From the sequence record NC_070870.1: a DNA stretch of 64,000 nucleotides; one strand, 5' to 3'. The position numbers were made by a program, and so were the translations under genes. This document shows positions 12,425-58,606 of the stretch, in pieces. Below the pieces are notes generated by a model that worked only from the letters and a program-made list of their open reading frames with translations, had not been told where the DNA came from and searched no databases. The stretch comes from Escherichia phage phi G17. The first letter of the stretch is position 1; the number at the start of each line of letters is the position of its first letter.

Positions 12425-12868
12425 ATGGATTTGTCATTCTTAACAGGCAACCAAACCCCACAGCCAGCGGCTATGTCTTGGATGTCTAATAACAACCAGA
12501 ACTTTAATACCCCAGCTATGAGCTATAACCCAGGTGCAGCTATTGGTATGGGTGCAGATACAGGAGTAGCCTCCCCTACTTCTTTCTTGTCTGGTTCAGC
12601 TAATCAGTTGGGCATGAACGTACCTACCTTCCAACTAGGACTGGGTGCACTTGGTTCATTAGCTAATATCTATGGTGGTTTCCAGGCTAACAAGTTAGCC
12701 AAAGACCAGCTGAATTTTACTAAGAGTGTTACTAACACTAACCTGAATAATCAGATTAAGTCTTATAACACTGCACTGGAAGACCGTGCTCGTAGCCGTG
12801 CTACGGCAGAGAACCGTGACCAGACTTCGGCTGATGCGTACATTGCAGCTAATAAACTAACTCGTTAA
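12425..12868 (+). CDS. hypothetical virion protein
   Basis: 147 aa, Gly/Asn/Ala-rich; synteny with virion module. Confidence 0.4.
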   Translation: MDLSFLTGNQTPQPAAMSWMSNNNQNFNTPAMSYNPGAAIGMGADTGVASPTSFLSGSANQLGMNVPTFQLGLGALGSLANIYGGFQANKLAKDQLNFTKSVTNTNLNNQIKSYNTALEDRARSRATAENRDQTSADAYIAANKLTR

Positions 12869-27932: not shown

Positions 27933-28433
27933 TTAACTACGTTTCAGGCCAGCGAACAGTGAAGGTTTCGCAGCAGGTTTCTCTGCTGGTTCTTCAACCT
28001 TAACTTCTTCCTGCACAGCTTCTTCGTGTGCATCTGGTTCAGTTGTTGCTTCTTCTTCTTCAGCAACTTCTTCTTCAGGTTCCGGCGTAGAACTCTCGTT
28101 CTGACCACCAACTGAGGTCGGGGCATCTACTTTCAGTTCCAGAGGTGCTCCCTCCTTTACCGATTCGGTAACAACTTGTTCACCAACCTCAGGTTCTGGG
28201 GTTGAGTCAACAGGACGATGTTTGGCTTCTTGTGGATTCTTGCGAGGACGGCGGGTCTTCTTCTCTACCACGGGTGGAGTGTCATCATCATGACCGACCT
28301 CTTCATTGATGCCAACGGAGGCAGTACCATCTGAATTCACCAGGATACTAATGTCCCCGGCAAGATTAACTTGTTCATTTACGTAAGCTTCAATAGCAGC
28401 TTCTACTTCGGACTGATTCAGGACGATTTGCAT
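27933..28433 (-). CDS. hypothetical highly acidic protein
   Basis: 166 aa; C-terminal half Glu/Pro/Val-rich low complexity with a short basic patch (KKTRRPRK). Confidence 0.45.
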   Translation of the reverse strand: MQIVLNQSEVEAAIEAYVNEQVNLAGDISILVNSDGTASVGINEEVGHDDDTPPVVEKKTRRPRKNPQEAKHRPVDSTPEPEVGEQVVTESVKEGAPLELKVDAPTSVGGQNESSTPEPEEEVAEEEEATTEPDAHEEAVQEEVKVEEPAEKPAAKPSLFAGLKRS

Positions 28434-47464: not shown

Positions 47465-47907
47465 TAGAATGACCTTAGATAGTTGGTAATACCACTACGG
47501 TTTTCTGTAATCCTCTTGGCCTGAACATATACCAGCTTAAACTCACTACGGGGTAGTTCCTGTAATACTGCTATACCTTCAGTAAGAGCCACAGAACACG
47601 CTACAGCGGTTTCTTCTTTAAAGGAGTACAAGTCTTCATACATGAGGGCTTCATACTCTTTACGGAGCATACAGAGAGCATCTCTTGCCTTATCACTTAC
47701 TTCTTGTGAACCAGCAGACATAGCTAAGCTGTATATGATAAAGACTTGTTCGAAAACAAAGTCCAGTAATCTATCAGGGGTGTTAGTACCCATGAATAAT
47801 TTTGTTGTGTAGGAACGAGCTTTACGGTTGAGTACATACTCATCCTCTATGCCTTTCTTATAAAGAACAGGGTTTCGTTCCCTTTTTCGTAGGAATGGAA
47901 TACGCAT
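47464..47907 (-). CDS. hypothetical protein
   Basis: 147 aa ORF, start overlaps ThyX gene end. Confidence 0.4.
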   Translation of the reverse strand: MRIPFLRKRERNPVLYKKGIEDEYVLNRKARSYTTKLFMGTNTPDRLLDFVFEQVFIIYSLAMSAGSQEVSDKARDALCMLRKEYEALMYEDLYSFKEETAVACSVALTEGIAVLQELPRSEFKLVYVQAKRITENRSGITNYLRSF

Positions 47908-47926
47908 TAGTAAGTCTTTCCTAGTA

Positions 47927-47955
47927 AATAAAAAAGCCCACGGGTTAGGTGGGCT
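47927..47955 (-). terminator. rho-independent terminator (minus orientation)
   Basis: AGCCCAC / GTGGGCT stem; plus-strand A-run gives T-run after hairpin on minus strand. Confidence 0.55.
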
Positions 47956-48035
47956 TGGGTTAGGAGATGGATAAGCAATGAGCTGGAAGTAACTTCCACA
48001 AATAGCCCTACTAGAGGGCTATTCAGGTAAGTTAC

Positions 48036-48242
48036 TTATTCAGCTTCTGCTTCAGGCTTAGCTCCAGACAGTGCTTTAGCTACATTACGACGAACAGAGT
48101 CGTAACCTACTTCAGTTCGTAGAAGAGAGCCGTCAACAAAAGCAATATCTGCTTTTCCGTCATCGCTGCATTGTACTGTTACTACGTTTGCTGCAACTAC
48201 TGTAAACTTACGACCATTTGCTTTGGTAGTGAATACTGACAT
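48036..48242 (-). CDS. hypothetical small protein
   Basis: 68 aa ORF. Confidence 0.3.
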   Translation of the reverse strand: MSVFTTKANGRKFTVVAANVVTVQCSDDGKADIAFVDGSLLRTEVGYDSVRRNVAKALSGAKPEAEAE

Positions 48243-48251
48243 GTTGTTTCC

Positions 48252-48758
48252 TTATTTACTGCTTCTCGCAGCTACTGGTTTGTTTTCCTGGTTATTGTAC
48301 TTGCCTGTGTATGTGGCAGGTTCTTGAACCAGATGAAATAGTACTTGAGCTATCCCGGAACCAGCCGGGATATGTAATTTCTTACGCCCGTGATAGACCA
48401 GTTCAAGGGTAAGATACCCTTTCCATCCTGGTTCTATTACGGTATTGAACACTGATAGTGCACGTCTTGCCCATGTAGACTTATCGTGAACGATAGCTAC
48501 ACAGGACGGGGACATGTTGAACTTCTCAATTGCTGAAGCCAATGCGAATTTACCAAGATGGTGTGATATTTGTTTTCCATCAACGACTTTCACCATTGGA
48601 ATCAACCCAAATAAGCGATAGAAGGTAATGTCCTGCTTTATGCGTATGTCGTAACCAGCTTCACCCAATCCATAGCTTACACCATGCTCGGATACCTTAT
48701 GGTCTGGGACATCCAGCAACTGAGATGAACGATATAGAGAATTACCATTAACAACCAT
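48252..48758 (-). CDS. dcd: dCTP deaminase / dUTPase-fold enzyme
   Basis: 168 aa; GYDIR and IEPGWKGYLTLELVY segments resemble the dCTP deaminase family. Confidence 0.6.
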   Translation of the reverse strand: MVVNGNSLYRSSQLLDVPDHKVSEHGVSYGLGEAGYDIRIKQDITFYRLFGLIPMVKVVDGKQISHHLGKFALASAIEKFNMSPSCVAIVHDKSTWARRALSVFNTVIEPGWKGYLTLELVYHGRKKLHIPAGSGIAQVLFHLVQEPATYTGKYNNQENKPVAARSSK

Positions 48759-49933
48759 TATTTCATTCCTTTAGGGATATGAACTACCTCCCCAAAAGGT
48801 ACGGTAGCACTAGGGTTATTCAGAACACACCAGATGATTGGAATATCAAACGGGAGTTCTTCCATTGGGCGAACGTACATATCAGAGAATATGATTGCAG
48901 CGGTTGGCTTATTCTTAATAATCCATTCGCGTACTGGTTCAAGGTTTGTACCACCACGACCAGTAATCTTAATCTCTTCAAAAGTATCTTCTTCAGTGAT
49001 GTCTATTTCTTCTTGGATAATATCGTCGAAGGTAATAAGGGACATCTTCTTAGGATTGAACTGGCTCTTAACGTAGGCAACCTCTGAGTTAAAACGCAGA
49101 GAGTCAGCACTACTGATAGAACCAGATACATCCTCAAAGTATGCTAAATGTCGTAAACGTCCTTCATCATCTTCCAGGGATGGTAGATAGATGTCAGTGA
49201 AACGACGGTTAGGTCTGGCCCACGTATAGCGTGAGTCATCAATGTCAGTGAAGAAGTCCATAAGGACTTCCTGCCAAGGAACCACTGGTTTAAGGAATTG
49301 GGTAATAACCTCTTCCATATGACCAGCACCTTTACCTGGCATCACTCCACCAGCCATCTTCTGGCTTTGCATTGCACGTACTACGTTGTTGACAACAGCA
49401 CCCTGGGACTGCCCCGAAGAGGGAGCTTTCATGTCGCCAGCAAGACCTGCTCCGGCACCCCCTGACGGCTGCTGCCTTTTCTGTGGGTTCTTCATCAGGT
49501 CATCGTAGATGTCTTCTTCGACCCATCCTTTATATTGAGGGTCTTTGCAAATACCTTCGTCGATACCAGTGAACTTGTAACCATCTTCCTCTAACTGAAG
49601 GTTAATGAAGTGGTCACATGCCTGGTTCCAGACTTCTGGGTCACGGCTTCCACAACGGATGCCATGCAGATATGCCACATGCCAGAGTTCGTGCATTAGC
49701 ACTGTTTCTCTTGCATCAGGACACATCCAGATAAAGAAGTCTGGGTTGAATCGTAGTTCTATCCCATCGGTACATGCAGTAGGACAATCCTCACGATTCC
49801 ATGAGAACTTAAGACTACACAGCAATGAACCAAAGAAAGCAGCACTCCTGCCCAAAAATGCCTGTGCTTGAATACGGTCATACTCACGCATGAGTTGTTC
49901 ATCACTAAGTGTGTGCTGAGGTATCTGGTTCAT
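48758..49933 (-). CDS. VWA-domain protein with N-terminal HExxH metallopeptidase-like domain (MoxR partner)
   Basis: 391 aa; HELWHVAYLH zinc-binding-like motif; C-terminal region consistent with VWA; directly downstream of MoxR-like ATPase. Confidence 0.55.
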   Translation of the reverse strand: MNQIPQHTLSDEQLMREYDRIQAQAFLGRSAAFFGSLLCSLKFSWNREDCPTACTDGIELRFNPDFFIWMCPDARETVLMHELWHVAYLHGIRCGSRDPEVWNQACDHFINLQLEEDGYKFTGIDEGICKDPQYKGWVEEDIYDDLMKNPQKRQQPSGGAGAGLAGDMKAPSSGQSQGAVVNNVVRAMQSQKMAGGVMPGKGAGHMEEVITQFLKPVVPWQEVLMDFFTDIDDSRYTWARPNRRFTDIYLPSLEDDEGRLRHLAYFEDVSGSISSADSLRFNSEVAYVKSQFNPKKMSLITFDDIIQEEIDITEEDTFEEIKITGRGGTNLEPVREWIIKNKPTAAIIFSDMYVRPMEELPFDIPIIWCVLNNPSATVPFGEVVHIPKGMK

Positions 49934-49940
49934 GATGTAA

Positions 49941-50993
49941 TTATCCGTGAATGTAGCGGGAGATATTGGCAGCAGCCTTACGCCATTCAGGGGTAGCCTG
50001 AATTTCTGGTAATGCTTTGCCTACTGTACGGAAGTACAGAATCTTATGGGTGAACGTTTTAAAGCGTTCAATGTACTGAAGAACATCAGCGAAGTTATCT
50101 TCAGTGGTCTTGTTAGCCAGATGGTTAACGGTAGCCCAACACAGGTTATTATCTTCCGGCAGTGCACAGCCCATGGGGTCTTTGACTACCTTCTCAATCG
50201 TAATCATACGATTGTATACCTGAGTGAACTGTACAAACTCCACAGCTTTACCCGGTGTAACAAATCCACTGTAGTAAAGGGAATCTTCATCAGGCAGTGC
50301 CCCTTCGGGGCAGTTATGTAAGTCCTTGTTAATGAAGTCCCATGTTCTCGGACACGCGAATGTTTTGTTCTTATGTGCTGGGTCGAAGTCATGCAGGTAG
50401 CCTGGGTTAGCATGTAAGAATGCAACCAGACGTTCATCCCACTCATATGGAATCATTACGTCTTCAACAAAGATGTCGAAGTTAAGTTCCATTTCGAAGT
50501 GTACAACACGAGACTGCATTGCAGTACCCAGTGGGTTAACGATGGCACGGTCAGTAGCTTTGTTACCGGCACAGACAATCATCACATTGGGGTGAAGTTT
50601 CTTCTGACCGGTCATACGGTCAAGAATCAGCTTGTATGCAGCAGCTACTACTTCTTTCTTAGCTGAGTTGAACTCATCCAGGAACAGGAGCCAGCCATTA
50701 TAACCTTCAGGGATTTCATCCCCTTCAATAGGGAACAGGTCAGCGAATGGAATAAATTCTGCACGGTCACCATTACGGAATGGTAGACCGGACAAGTCTT
50801 CAGGAGCAGAAGTAGACAGACGATGGTCAATCAGCTTCATGCCAAATTCCTCTGCAACAGAACGAATGATCGCAGACTTACCCATGCCTGGTGATGAAGT
50901 CAGAAACGGAACGTTACCTGCTTGCAAGGCACGGATGATAAAGTTACGGGCTTGACGTGTATTACATACGGTCAAGGAGTCAATGCTCGCCAT
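49941..50993 (-). CDS. MoxR-like AAA+ ATPase
   Basis: Walker A SSPGMGKS, Walker B LLFLDEFN, about 350 aa. Confidence 0.7.
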   Translation of the reverse strand: MASIDSLTVCNTRQARNFIIRALQAGNVPFLTSSPGMGKSAIIRSVAEEFGMKLIDHRLSTSAPEDLSGLPFRNGDRAEFIPFADLFPIEGDEIPEGYNGWLLFLDEFNSAKKEVVAAAYKLILDRMTGQKKLHPNVMIVCAGNKATDRAIVNPLGTAMQSRVVHFEMELNFDIFVEDVMIPYEWDERLVAFLHANPGYLHDFDPAHKNKTFACPRTWDFINKDLHNCPEGALPDEDSLYYSGFVTPGKAVEFVQFTQVYNRMITIEKVVKDPMGCALPEDNNLCWATVNHLANKTTEDNFADVLQYIERFKTFTHKILYFRTVGKALPEIQATPEWRKAAANISRYIHG

Positions 50994-51027: not shown

Positions 51028-51357
51028 TTAAGATTTAACGCAAGGGTATGCTTTGTGGATTGCCACATTAATCATGTCAGCAGGATGGTTCAGTTTTTGG
51101 ATAGTTGCATCCAACAGAATCTCATCTGCTACTTTGTGAAGTACATGCTTAAGCTGGATACCTTCTGGTACGCAGTTATCGGTAATATCCACAGCCATGG
51201 ATACCATACCCATGTAATAACCTTGGCTCGTATAATCAGGTGTATCGTACTTGTAGGCTTTGGCAGCAGCTTCCAGCAAGGTTGCACGACTAGATGCTTG
51301 AGCACCGAATGAAAGAGCTGATAGAACCACTACAGCAACAGCAATTAAAGTTTTCAT
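51028..51357 (-). CDS. secreted/periplasmic small protein (signal peptide)
   Basis: N-terminal MKTLIAVAVVVLSALSFGAQA signal-peptide-like sequence; 109 aa with two Cys. Confidence 0.45.
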   Translation of the reverse strand: MKTLIAVAVVVLSALSFGAQASSRATLLEAAAKAYKYDTPDYTSQGYYMGMVSMAVDITDNCVPEGIQLKHVLHKVADEILLDATIQKLNHPADMINVAIHKAYPCVKS

Positions 51358-51543
51358 TTAGTTACCTTTTAACTCGTTGAGTTGAAGTACTCCGGTAGGG
51401 GTTAATGACCACCCAAGACCGGCATTGAACTGTACTAAGCCCAGCTTCTTAAGAGACTGTGCGGTTTTGTTATTACGGTTGCTGGTGGCAGAACCACCTT
51501 GAACCATGCGAATGAAGATTACTTGGGACTGGGTAAGTTTCAT
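51358..51543 (-). CDS. hypothetical small protein
   Basis: 61 aa ORF. Confidence 0.3.
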   Translation of the reverse strand: MKLTQSQVIFIRMVQGGSATSNRNNKTAQSLKKLGLVQFNAGLGWSLTPTGVLQLNELKGN

Positions 51544-51728
51544 TTTTTCTCCGGTACGAACTGCATTACGCAGTTTTGATTACGAGGGATACTCAATTCA
51601 CATTCATGCTTGAGGGTTTGCGTTACAGAATTTGGTGTAGGACCAAAGTAGTTATTATTAATAGCTACAATTCCTGCACCAATGAACCCACCTAGTACGA
51701 ATGAGAAGAATGCAATCTCTTTGTACAT
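51540..51728 (-). CDS. small membrane protein
   Basis: 62 aa; FFSFVLGGFIGAGIVAI hydrophobic helix. Confidence 0.35.
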   Translation of the reverse strand: MYKEIAFFSFVLGGFIGAGIVAINNNYFGPTPNSVTQTLKHECELSIPRNQNCVMQFVPEKK

Positions 51729-51753: not shown

Positions 51754-51782
51754 AAAAAAAGACCTCCTATTTCTAGGAGGTC
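51754..51782 (-). terminator. rho-independent terminator (minus orientation)
   Basis: GACCTCCTA-TTTC-TAGGAGGTC perfect 9-bp stem; A7 on plus strand. Confidence 0.65.
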
Positions 51783-51831: not shown

Positions 51832-52428
51832 TTACAGAGCAGAGTAGGCTAATTGTAGCGTAGTAGATACACCATCTTTGGTAATAGTCAGTTCTGCATC
51901 ATAAACCCCAGGGCTTGGCTCAGTGCCCCACTTATAACTGATTACCCCGTAACCTAAGGTTGGTTCCAGTTTAATATCATAGGAAGCTGCTGCTTCCCCT
52001 TCCACAGCAAGGGTGATGGTTCCAGTTGAACCAGTAGGCTTAGGTACTACACGGAGGTAGCGTACACCTTCATATACATCCAAAGTCTCCCCGTCTTGGT
52101 ACAGGCGGGAAATTTCCTCTGTTTCCGGGTCATAGCGATAAACATCAAACCCAACTGGTACAGGGTCTGAGCCGGGAACTACTTCATAGATATCCCAGTC
52201 GTTAAGGTTGGTCAGGTTGTCCGGGAAGAATGCAGTCTGAGCTACATTTCCACCGTTACGGAAGTAAGCAATCTTACGGATACCGTGCCAGATAACATAA
52301 CTATCCGGGTAGGTAGCATCAGGGTGTTCAAATGAACCGATAGCTACAAAACCATCCTCCATAGAGGGAGAGGTTGAGTAGTTAATTTTCTTGGTAGATT
52401 GTTGAGCAGATACATATACAGTTGGCAT
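51832..52428 (-). CDS. beta-rich protein, possible capsid decoration protein
   Basis: 198 aa, Gly/Thr/Val-rich; N4 is recalled to encode its decoration protein (gp17) just after RNAP II genes; tentative. Confidence 0.3.
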   Translation of the reverse strand: MPTVYVSAQQSTKKINYSTSPSMEDGFVAIGSFEHPDATYPDSYVIWHGIRKIAYFRNGGNVAQTAFFPDNLTNLNDWDIYEVVPGSDPVPVGFDVYRYDPETEEISRLYQDGETLDVYEGVRYLRVVPKPTGSTGTITLAVEGEAAASYDIKLEPTLGYGVISYKWGTEPSPGVYDAELTITKDGVSTTLQLAYSAL

Positions 52429-52429
52429 C

Positions 52430-53671
52430 TTAGATTTCCTCTTTGTATGACATGCCTAAGTTGGCAGCGAAGCCCATATTATTGAACTGAAGGTTAATGT
52501 TACCACCAACTGGTTGCATATCCACAACGTCGGGTGATGCCAGCATTACTGTAGTTAGGGAGAGGCTATCAGCCAGTATCTGTACATTTGACAGAGTACA
52601 ATTCTCATTTGATGAGATTCTGATTGAGTGGTAATACGCACCACTCGCAGAAGATTCAATCATTACTTCTTGGTCTGTTATTGGTCCCATCAGGATATGT
52701 GTACGAGATGCCCCATTAGGACTCATAAACTTAATAACCATAGAACCTGCTTGAGAAAGGGTAGTTGTGAACCGGATGGCATTGTACTTACTAGAATCAG
52801 TTGCTCCACCCGGATAGGTTAATTCCAGGTATTCATTAGCATCATCATTACCACCGGTATACGTAGCAGTACCTGCTGAGTAAGTCCAGGTAGCTTTAGA
52901 AGCAGAAGCTGTAGGAGTAGCTGGAGTACCTCCCATAATGCGTTTATAAGCTAGCAGGTCTACTGGAGTACCACTGGTTCCAACGTAGTCCTTAAAGCCT
53001 CTGTAACCTATCAGGAAGCGTAAATACTTCTGCTCAGGTAATTGCTCAAACTTCAGGGAAAACACACTGGAGTTCTCTGTATTGGATACAAACTCTGCAT
53101 CCACAACAGGATGTTCTTTATCAATGATACGACCAATCAGTGGTGTAATTGGTTCATCTGCTTCCACTATAAGGTCTGCCTCTTCCAGAGTGAGGTTGGA
53201 ACCAATGAAGATAGCTGCCCAGCATACCCAGTCATTAGCCTGAGTATAGTAAGCCAACTGGAGAGGCTCACCTCCATGCGTTGCACGTAATCCTTGTAAA
53301 CCTTGGCTCATTTCTTTACGACCTGTAACCATAAGGATGCAGTTCGGATAGGCCATAGTGTAAGGCACAGTGTATGAGGTCAGTCTGCTCTCGCTGGTAT
53401 TGAAATCCATTGGACCTGGTTCCAGTGGCTCAGGGCCAGATTGAATCATACGGATAGGATAGTTCATTGCATCATCTTGCCCATCTCTGTACAGGAGGTC
53501 TTGAACGTGATGGAACATGACATGGTTAAGCGGATTGCCTAAAATATCTTGTCCTTCTTCATGATGGTATTCCCCAATAGGTACATACCCATCAAGACCG
53601 GCATTCACCTCATAGGGAACTACGGCTATAGCTTTAGGCTTATCTGATTTAAACACTTTACGGTTTGGCAT
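52430..53671 (-). CDS. hypothetical beta-rich protein
   Basis: 413 aa ORF abutting the next gene. Confidence 0.4.
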   Translation of the reverse strand: MPNRKVFKSDKPKAIAVVPYEVNAGLDGYVPIGEYHHEEGQDILGNPLNHVMFHHVQDLLYRDGQDDAMNYPIRMIQSGPEPLEPGPMDFNTSESRLTSYTVPYTMAYPNCILMVTGRKEMSQGLQGLRATHGGEPLQLAYYTQANDWVCWAAIFIGSNLTLEEADLIVEADEPITPLIGRIIDKEHPVVDAEFVSNTENSSVFSLKFEQLPEQKYLRFLIGYRGFKDYVGTSGTPVDLLAYKRIMGGTPATPTASASKATWTYSAGTATYTGGNDDANEYLELTYPGGATDSSKYNAIRFTTTLSQAGSMVIKFMSPNGASRTHILMGPITDQEVMIESSASGAYYHSIRISSNENCTLSNVQILADSLSLTTVMLASPDVVDMQPVGGNINLQFNNMGFAANLGMSYKEEI

Positions 53672-56271: not shown

Positions 56272-56619
56272 TTATGACCAGTAGTTGTAATCGTCACCTA
56301 AGTACGGTTTCCATTGTTCAGGGAGCAGTACATTACCGGTGACATTAATGAATTGATGTGGAAGTAGGTCTTCCGAGATTGCTACTTTGAAATCCCATTG
56401 AGGATTCATAGAGGCATAAGCAATAAATCCATTAATGAATTTCTGCACATCCTCTTGGTTCAATAAACCATCACGACCTTGCGTAGGAATAGCAAAGCTA
56501 TTTCCGTATTGACCATAGGCCATACCCCAACGAGCACCATGCTTCTTATAAGCCAGCTTGGCTGAGTCAGATGAGTGCTGGCCCATAAAGTTAGATGTGA
56601 ATACGAATATCTCTTTCAT
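56272..56619 (-). CDS. hypothetical protein
   Basis: 115 aa ORF. Confidence 0.4.
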   Translation of the reverse strand: MKEIFVFTSNFMGQHSSDSAKLAYKKHGARWGMAYGQYGNSFAIPTQGRDGLLNQEDVQKFINGFIAYASMNPQWDFKVAISEDLLPHQFINVTGNVLLPEQWKPYLGDDYNYWS

Positions 56620-58363: not shown

Positions 58364-58606
58364 TCACTGGTTCCTCTTTGCATAGTCTTCTGCTTCTTTA
58401 GCCCAGAGTTGCTTACGAACTTCTTTGGCTATGATGGAAGCAAACAGACACTTAACGAATACAACTGGTAACTTAACAATGAGGATAGTCTTAGTGACTA
58501 CCCACTTAACTAATTTCAGTGCAATGAATCTCACTCGGTAAGCCACATAGAAGATGAACAACCATGTAGCAACAGAGATTAAATAGCCTAATTCGTATAC
58601 AGACAT
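58364..58606 (-). CDS. small membrane protein
   Basis: 80 aa, hydrophobic N-terminal helices, basic C-terminus. Confidence 0.35.
   Translation of the reverse strand: MSVYELGYLISVATWLFIFYVAYRVRFIALKLVKWVVTKTILIVKLPVVFVKCLFASIIAKEVRKQLWAKEAEDYAKRNQ

Follow-up and report, generated by a model that had tools for sequence, protein, structure and literature searches.

Three small genes upstream of the gp24 ATPase gene

The 64,000-nucleotide DNA of Escherichia phage phi G17 analysed here (NC_070870.1, the window) carries three adjacent open reading frames (ORFs) between positions 51,028 and 51,728, the longest of which encodes a 109-aa protein that is the main subject of this work. The source phage is a G7C-like, N4-like coliphage (Schitoviridae, Gamaleyavirus). 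The DNA around the three ORFs is 84-94% identical to that of G7C, PhAPEC5/7, Bas96 and others, and the ORFs are the counterparts of G7C gp17.1, gp17.2 and gp17.3, the names used below. We found that gp17.3 is very probably a real, exported protein with the Rap1a fold. Furthermore, we tentatively propose, with slightly less than even confidence, that it is an orphan Rap1a/Tai4a-type immunity protein with which a virulent N4-like coliphage would block an incoming papain-like cell-wall amidase, brought by rival bacteria or by other phages. The features of the locus are, in the order of transcription:

51754..51782, minus strand: intrinsic-terminator-like hairpin GACCTCCTAGAAATAGGAGGTC followed by T7 (9-bp stem with 5 GC pairs, 4-nt loop, T-run)
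51782..51761, minus strand: the hairpin proper, after which the T-run comes; it closes the preceding decoration-protein gene
51540..51728, minus strand: gp17.1-like ORF, 62 aa (phrog_7508, E 3e-32)
51358..51543, minus strand: gp17.2-like ORF, 61 aa (phrog_7665, E 2e-34)
51028..51357, minus strand: gp17.3-like ORF, 109 aa, predicted periplasmic protein of the Rap1a/Tai4a family (PHROG, Pfam and fold evidence)
51295..51357, minus strand: Sec-type signal peptide MKTLIAVAVVVLSALSFGAQA of gp17.3, codons 1-21, predicted cleavage after AQA (hydropathy, -3/-1 rule)
51172..51174, minus strand: codon of Cys62, part of an NCVP motif and located in the predicted helix 2-3 loop of gp17.3; invariant in the family
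51040..51042, minus strand: codon of Cys106 in an AYPC motif, in the C-terminal tail of gp17.3, invariant, 44 residues after Cys62
49941..50993, minus strand: N4 gp24-like AAA/MoxR-type ATPase, the next gene downstream of gp17.3
48758..49933, minus strand: N4 gp25-like protein with DUF2201 metallopeptidase-like and VWA-like domains, the partner of the ATPase

An earlier note on this DNA had the extent of the three ORFs right and had described them as lying downstream of a MoxR module, with the signal-peptide ORF followed by the two small ones. All three are on the minus strand and are transcribed from 51728 to 51028, so that they lie upstream of the ATPase gene (50993..49941), and both small ORFs precede the signal-peptide ORF; the claimed order is true only in plus-strand coordinates. 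Transcription thus runs from the terminator through gp17.1, gp17.2 and gp17.3 to the gp24 ATPase and gp25 in a tightly packed series, and gp17.3 is co-oriented with the middle-gene block. The terminator-like hairpin stands about 30 nt ahead of gp17.1, and a stem_loop or terminator is annotated at the matching site in both G7C and PhAPEC5. The ATG of gp17.1 is preceded by an AGGA Shine-Dalgarno motif, the gp17.1 stop and the gp17.2 start overlap as ATGA, and the TAA of gp17.2 directly abuts the ATG of gp17.3. Between gp17.3 and the gp24 ATPase gene there is a 34-nt spacer with an AGGAG Shine-Dalgarno motif.

These three ORFs are real genes and not chance frames, because each has a full-length match to a PHROG family (E 1e-32 to 1e-38), orthologues occur in identical order in more than 50 Gamaleyavirus genomes, the pairwise ratios of nonsynonymous to synonymous substitution rates (dN/dS) are mostly below 0.6, a Shine-Dalgarno motif is found at every one of the three genes, and their start and stop codons are tightly coupled. 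The opposite view, that they are chance frames or that the true gene lies on the plus strand, can draw on the presence of overlapping plus-strand ORFs such as the 85-aa ORF at 51055..51312. Besides the PHROG matches, the conserved orthologues with dN/dS below 1, the ribosome-binding sites and the coupled codons, all of which belong to the minus strand, the gp17.3 product yields a confident fold prediction, and the plus-strand ORF is conserved merely as the shadow of the minus-strand gene. We therefore consider this view close to impossible; the conservation pattern refutes it already.

gp17.3 as a probable exported member of the Rap1a family

The N-terminus of gp17.3 is composed of an n-region (MK), an h-region (TLIAVAVVVLSALSF) and a c-region (GAQA, followed after the cleavage site by SS), with alanine at both positions -3 and -1. 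The h-region has a Kyte-Doolittle mean of 3.05 over an 11-residue window, no lipobox cysteine is present in the N-terminus, and the signal-peptide region is conserved in all gp17.3 relatives. By these sequence rules, the ORF does carry the classical signal peptide that the earlier note had recognized, and the periplasmic export that the note drew from it is supported as well. The mature protein would comprise about 88 aa.

With the periplasmic proteins of the Rap1a/Tai4a family, bacteria protect themselves from Tae4-type peptidoglycan endopeptidases, toxins that rivals inject by type VI secretion and that cut the cell wall. The assignment of gp17.3 to this fold family is well supported. Pfam Rap1a (PF18602) is the sole Pfam match of gp17.3 (E 2.6e-4, 21.9 bits), and 24 of the 25 members of the gp17.3 family match the same model, likewise below its threshold. 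The allele found at the same locus in Shigella phage Moonfish, which is 48% identical, reaches 29.6 bits and so exceeds the cut-off of 27.7, and its depositors annotate it as 'Rap1a, IPR041238'. As a bona fide reference we used P0112, a strong Pfam Rap1a member (63.7 bits to PF18602); aligned with it by hhalign, the phage family profile gave a probability of 96.6% and an E-value of 5.7e-10 over 105 columns, end to end and with both cysteine motifs aligned.

The predicted structure points to the same family. The AlphaFold2 (AF2) model of gp17.3 has a predicted local distance difference test score (pLDDT) of 77 overall and above 89 for residues 51-100, with five helices in the mature protein (24-36, 42-58, 69-82, 84-87 and 92-103). 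When this model was compared with the Protein Data Bank (PDB) by Foldseek, seven of the nine best matches, including the first five, were Agrobacterium tumefaciens Tai4 (6IJE, 6IJF) and Serratia marcescens Rap1a (3ZFI, 4BI8), with probabilities of 0.63-0.99 and template modelling (TM) scores of 0.49-0.63. In BFVD, a set of predicted viral structures, the matches were phage proteins listed by UniProt as 'Rap1a immunity protein domain-containing protein'.

Of all the evidence for membership of the Rap1a family, the spacing of two cysteines says the most. Rap1a consists of five helices, forms a dimer built on alpha2, and has a disulfide between Cys78 in the alpha2-alpha3 loop and Cys122 near the C-terminus, 44 residues apart, on which folding depends (PMC3852654). 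Only two cysteines are invariant in the phage family, C62 and C106, the latter three residues before the end, and they match Cys78 and Cys122 of Rap1a in placement and in the 44-residue spacing, from which we infer a C62-C106 disulfide bond in gp17.3. Furthermore, helix 2, with the motif QGY[FY]MGMV, is the most conserved helix of the gp17.3 family.

Collectively, the closest known proteins to gp17.3 are Rap1a (S. marcescens SMA2260, PF18602) and A. tumefaciens Tai4. With both of them it has in common a cleavable signal peptide (predicted in gp17.3), a mature length of about 90-100 aa and a five-helix bundle, and with Rap1a it also shares the cysteines in the helix 2-3 loop and the C-terminal tail and the conserved helix 2, which in Rap1a is the dimer helix. 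Identity to the solved Rap1a and A. tumefaciens Tai4 structures is merely 13-20% in the Foldseek alignments. Tai4 proper, represented by the Tai4 proteins of Enterobacter cloacae and Salmonella Typhimurium and by Serratia Rap2a, Rap1b and Rap2b, has a six-helix fold, and Tai4 proper and Rap1a are distinct folds (PMC3852654), although both comprise small periplasmic, all-alpha, disulfide-bonded and dimeric immunity proteins against Tae4. For gp17.3 we found no Pfam match to Tai4 proper and no such structure (EcTai4, STTai4, Rap2a) among the Foldseek matches.

In the databases the phi G17 protein is 'hypothetical protein PP764_gp48' (100% identical). Several GenBank records use 'Tai4' for the phage orthologue, and UniProt and a few submitters use Rap1a or Tai4. 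The label 'Tai4' is loosely right but strictly names another fold, and 'Tai4a/Rap1a' is accurate. In some databases the family label had already been given to orthologues automatically. A search of NCBIfam gave nothing meaningful, the PADLOC-DB models did not match the three ORFs, gp24 or gp25, and a bioRxiv paper on G7C-like phages does not mention the gp17.1-gp17.3 genes.

Orphan context, divergent alleles and neighbouring genes

Unlike Rap1a, gp17.3 is borne by a virulent phage, without a cognate Tae4/Ssp1 effector or type VI secretion system (T6SS) genes. Its neighbours are gp17.2 and the gp24 ATPase gene, and the context in all relatives is equivalent and phage. Of the 82 matches obtained when 5.8 billion proteins were searched with a word-indexed profile, all but one were relatives of about 108-112 aa, whose longest contigs are mostly 70-74 kb; the single bacterial-type link was P0112, at a borderline E-value of 3e-3. 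More distant homologues (31-35% identity) include one on an N4-like contig of about 72 kb with gp24 and gp25 homologues and another that shares a 2.2-kb fragment with a gene for a gp25-like protein. No gp17.3 relatives were found by a pattern scan of 185,579 representative bacterial and archaeal genomes, by distant blastn of 5,426 complete E. coli genomes or by tblastn of plasmids. The gp17.3 family is therefore almost confined to N4-like phage genomes of about 70 kb, and because the clade is almost wholly phage-borne and is absent from the bacterial, E. coli and plasmid sets, we consider it an old phage lineage.

The reference protein P0112 is itself encoded on a 2.9-kb food-metagenome contig (L006, 464-2839), where it comes directly after a gene for a serine recombinase (Resolvase/Recombinase) and an ORF of 114 aa; possibly it is an orphan immunity gene carried by a mobile element. 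An exhaustive single-sequence search of 1.84 billion representatives gave seven matches. A 3417-aa protein matched at E 1e-18 (P0073) was rejected as spurious: about 19 tandem PAS-domain C-terminal motifs, with the repeated motif TPxYxxxGxxxGxVGIGQDIT, each weakly match residues 38-65, and the protein is a false positive and no homologue.

This distribution bears on the possibility that the fold has been exapted, the Rap1a scaffold now binding another envelope partner, for example the host NlpC/P60 hydrolase MepS or MepH and thereby halting wall remodelling, or some unrelated protein of the periplasm or outer membrane. A clade that is old, phage-restricted and never beside an effector would be expected under such a change of partner, and so would a sequence far from the bacterial members, as seen in the single E 3e-3 link among 5.8 billion proteins. 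A conserved host target, however, would not predict deep, recombining allele classes or variability in surface loops, and evidence for any alternative partner is absent, so that we rate exaptation as unlikely.

Next, the divergence of the gp17.3 alleles was compared with that of the flanking genes, using amino acid identities between phi G17 and G7C, PBM-3, Bas96, PhAPEC5, Bp4 and Moonfish. Identity of gp17.3 is 42-61% across these phages, and that of the flanking proteins is 90-98% for gp17.2, 79-90% for gp17.1 and 94-98% for gp24. Between allele classes, the synonymous divergence (dS) of gp17.3 is 0.7-1.8 against 0.05-0.55 for the flanking genes, and its dN/dS is 0.3-0.45 against 0.02-0.09 for gp24. 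gp17.3 is thus a local divergence hot spot, and this pattern is characteristic of old allele classes that recombination has shuffled under relaxed or diversifying constraint.

The variability is concentrated in the loop at residues 37-41, in residues 65-72 and in the loop at residues 88-91, with helix 2 and the cysteine motifs nearly fixed. In Rap1a, the contacts with the effector are made by alpha1, alpha3, alpha4, alpha5 and the loop between alpha4 and alpha5; residues 81-94, which closely follow Cys78, are among them (PMC3852654). From the equal cysteine spacing, we infer that phage residues 65-78 correspond to Rap1a residues 81-94.

No virion protein was found to co-vary with gp17.3: among phages that differ in their gp17.3 allele, conservation of the virion proteins is 92-100%. 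This matters for the hypothesis of superinfection exclusion, in which gp17.3 would inhibit the wall-piercing enzyme of other phages or tailocins entering the infected cell. The precedent is T4 Spackle (gp61.3), the closest functional precedent for gp17.3 in phages: a small, signal-peptide-exported periplasmic protein, made before lysis, that inhibits a peptidoglycan hydrolase stoichiometrically (PMC7677548). Furthermore, in related Gamaleyaviruses this gene block also contains a gene for T4 Imm-like superinfection immunity, and deep allele classes would also fit an arms race between phages. gp17.3, however, has no sequence or fold similarity to Spackle, and the two differ in target, since Spackle acts on the lysozyme (a muramidase) of the superinfecting phage and the known targets of the Rap1a fold are papain-like DL-endopeptidases, namely Tae4-type cysteine amidases. 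No NlpC/P60 or Tae4 domain was detected by Pfam in the ten proteins scanned (nine late-region ORFs, mostly virion proteins, and the 413-aa ORF described below), no such domain has been described for N4-like ejection proteins, and a paper on N4-like phage structure mentions no NlpC/P60- or Tae4-type enzyme. The conservation of virion proteins across alleles also means that there is no co-varying self target, and phi G17 is without an Imm-like gene. Taken together, we regard a Spackle-like role as improbable, rather more so than exaptation.

The Imm-like gene, gp27.1, is located between gp27 and gp28 in G7C, PhAPEC5, Bp4 and Bas96; tblastn of the G7C protein against the window showed that it is absent here (region 47907-48036). 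The idea of an Imm plus Spackle-like pair is accordingly weakened for phi G17, with no Imm-like gene in the 64-kb window.

The lysis genes tell against another alternative, namely that gp17.3 regulates the timing of lysis as an antiholin-like factor or as an inhibitor of the phage's own endolysin, maybe together with the gp17.1-like peptide. Such a regulator would suit the predicted periplasmic location and production before lysis from an operon that also encodes a small membrane protein whose putative periplasmic tail is conserved, and N4-like phages do carry rIIA and rIIB. The endolysin, however, is a GH108 N-acetylmuramidase according to Pfam, an enzyme class unlike the targets of Rap1a; the late region, where the genes for holin, endolysin and spanin are found, is distant from gp17.3; the holin and endolysin are conserved while the gp17.3 alleles diverge; and no similarity to T4 RI or other antiholins was found in Pfam, PHROGs or the PDB. 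We consider regulation of lysis very unlikely. The earlier note had listed lysis regulators, superinfection exclusion and receptor modification as possible roles for the exported protein; this was roughly the right direction, but the evidence is more specific in pointing to Rap1a/Tai4a, and a lysis regulator is the least supported of these.

Of the two small genes, gp17.1 bears out the earlier remark that one of the small ORFs is hydrophobic, as it has one N-terminal transmembrane segment (residues 5-23, mean hydropathy 2.34), which is variable in sequence. Its C-terminal tail is almost invariant (K-x-ECEL-x-IPRNQ-x-C-[VI]-[MI]-QFVPEK, with two invariant cysteines). From the topology predicted on this basis, gp17.1 is probably bitopic, spanning the inner membrane and exposing a small, disulfide-bonded tail to the periplasm. 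Because the tail is kept even in 51%-identical homologues, gp17.1 may be a membrane-anchored peptide that contacts a conserved partner in the periplasm.

The 61-aa gp17.2 is not hydrophobic, has an isoelectric point of 11.2 and is 90-98% conserved within the genus. A single-sequence AF2 prediction gave a helix-helix-beta-hairpin, a poor model (pLDDT 64) for which the fold search was uninformative (all E-values above 1, with faint echoes of DtxR/MntR-type winged helices), and a profile search of the PDB came back empty. From this model, gp17.2 is possibly a small nucleic-acid-binding protein; a winged helix would be a guess.

We treat the interval between gp17 and gp24 as a variable accessory-gene island and not as a three-part system, because three extra small ORFs (orf72, orf73 and orf75) are interleaved with the gp17.1-gp17.3 homologues in Bp4 (record positions 63318-64290), and because gp17.1 and gp17.2 are missing beside the two most distant gp17.3 homologues examined (L003, L005). 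A more distant relative (L016) does keep all three genes together, with 83% identity in the ATPase and 42-48% in the three genes. Accordingly, gp17.1 and gp17.2 are regarded as separate accessory genes of this island, and we found no evidence for their joint action with gp17.3.

Other observations concern genes elsewhere in the window. The Hoc-like head-decoration gene gp17, whose product has about 275 aa in G7C, Bas96 and Bp4, is replaced in phi G17 by two tandem ORFs that share an N-terminal DGxVxIGxxxH motif and differ in their C-terminal parts:

51832-52428, minus strand: 198-aa ORF, of which the N-terminal ~80 aa alone resemble gp17 (36-46%), with a PHROG Hoc-like match
52430-53671, minus strand: 413-aa ORF; Pfam gave nothing for this or for the 198-aa ORF

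The dCTP deaminase (48252-48758, minus strand) is 90-98% identical in most relatives and 45% identical in PhAPEC5 and one IMG/VR contig, and is thus another allele replacement inside an otherwise conserved block. Among the virion-protein genes, a 147-aa ORF (12425-12868, plus strand) has a weak match to Pfam 'Bacterial toxin 22' (Ntox22), with E 0.002 and 18.5 bits where the cut-off is 25, which is probably due to chance; the annotation of its Bp4 orthologue notes similarity to the 16.5-kDa structural protein of N4.

A possible role in blocking foreign peptidoglycan amidases

By analogy with the Rap1a family, we hypothesize that gp17.3 inhibits a peptidoglycan amidase, a proposal for which we judge the chances to be about even. 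Under this hypothesis, gp17.3 would be exported by Sec and then oxidised in a DsbA-dependent way, and would dimerise through the highly conserved helix 2. The dimer would, like Rap1a, sterically plug the active site of a papain-like (NlpC/P60, Tae4-type) gamma-D-glutamyl-meso-diaminopimelate (gamma-D-Glu-mDAP) peptidoglycan endopeptidase arriving in the periplasm of the infected cell, and would thereby preserve the sacculus up to the point at which the holin and GH108 muramidase of the phage bring about lysis. The likeliest source of such an enzyme would be type VI secretion attack by neighbouring Enterobacteriaceae, in which case the deep gp17.3 allele classes would reflect different effector specificities.

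An enzyme of the phage itself is unlikely as the target, because the endolysin is of the wrong class (GH108) and no virion protein co-varies with gp17.3. An external and variable enzyme fits better, and protection against T6SS amidases was therefore ranked first, given that Tae4/Tai4 pairs co-evolve and are highly specific: their co-evolution is documented, as is their high specificity (PMC3852654). On its own, the identification of the target amidase as a T6SS effector of neighbouring bacteria is nonetheless tentative, and we give it roughly a one-third share of our belief. A little more doubtful still is the view that a strictly lytic phage equips the cell it infects with an orphan type VI immunity protein, and that the alleles track the Tae4/Ssp1-type effector repertoires of the gut community.

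Several observations weigh against this interpretation of gp17.3. The genomic context that defines the family is absent, with no Tae4/Ssp1-like effector and no T6SS gene accompanying gp17.3, and the clade, as an old phage lineage, may have acquired a different partner. With respect to the family assignment, the phi G17 protein is below the curated PF18602 gathering score (21.9 against 27.7 bits), the Foldseek E-values for the Tai4/Rap1a matches are weak (0.2-1.8), and PDB sequence searches with the single protein, two family profiles and the Moonfish allele gave nothing relevant. The sole near-matches in these sequence searches were artefacts resembling the HA tag ('YPYDVPDY'). A phmmer search of the PDB with P0112 likewise did not reach the Rap1a sequences, although P0112 is a strong Pfam member. 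No publication on a phage-encoded Rap1a or Tai4 homologue was found in the literature searched. Finally, dN/dS of gp17.3 is below 1 and hence no proof of positive selection, and other early and middle accessory ORFs are equally divergent among Gamaleyaviruses (34-72% identity), so that turnover is not unique to gp17.3. The comparably divergent accessory ORFs are:

56272-56619, minus strand
58364-58606, minus strand
27933-28433, minus strand

The proposed immunity function has a bacterial parallel in the orphan T6SS immunity arrays of Vibrio cholerae, which like gp17.3 are without a cognate effector, and which are horizontally spread and thought to be protective against non-kin. These arrays are chromosomal or on integrative elements and confer a long-term benefit on the bacterium, whereas the carrier of gp17.3 is strictly lytic, and any protection would last one infection cycle. 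In the literature searched, we found no description of such a three-way interaction between phage, host and competitor.

With its 88 residues, its clear allele classes and the existing Ssp1/Rap1a experimental systems, gp17.3 is a cheap and testable candidate. If it blocks the entry enzymes of other phages, it would represent a second, structurally unrelated solution to the problem that Spackle solves for T4. If instead it neutralises T6SS amidases, virulent phages would invest in shielding the infected cell from third-party bacteria, and contact-dependent killing by neighbours could not destroy the cell before the burst. Under this hypothesis, interbacterial warfare would be a selective force on the genomes of virulent phages, and the T6SS role would be relevant to phage therapy wherever communities are dense and rich in T6SS, as in the gut.

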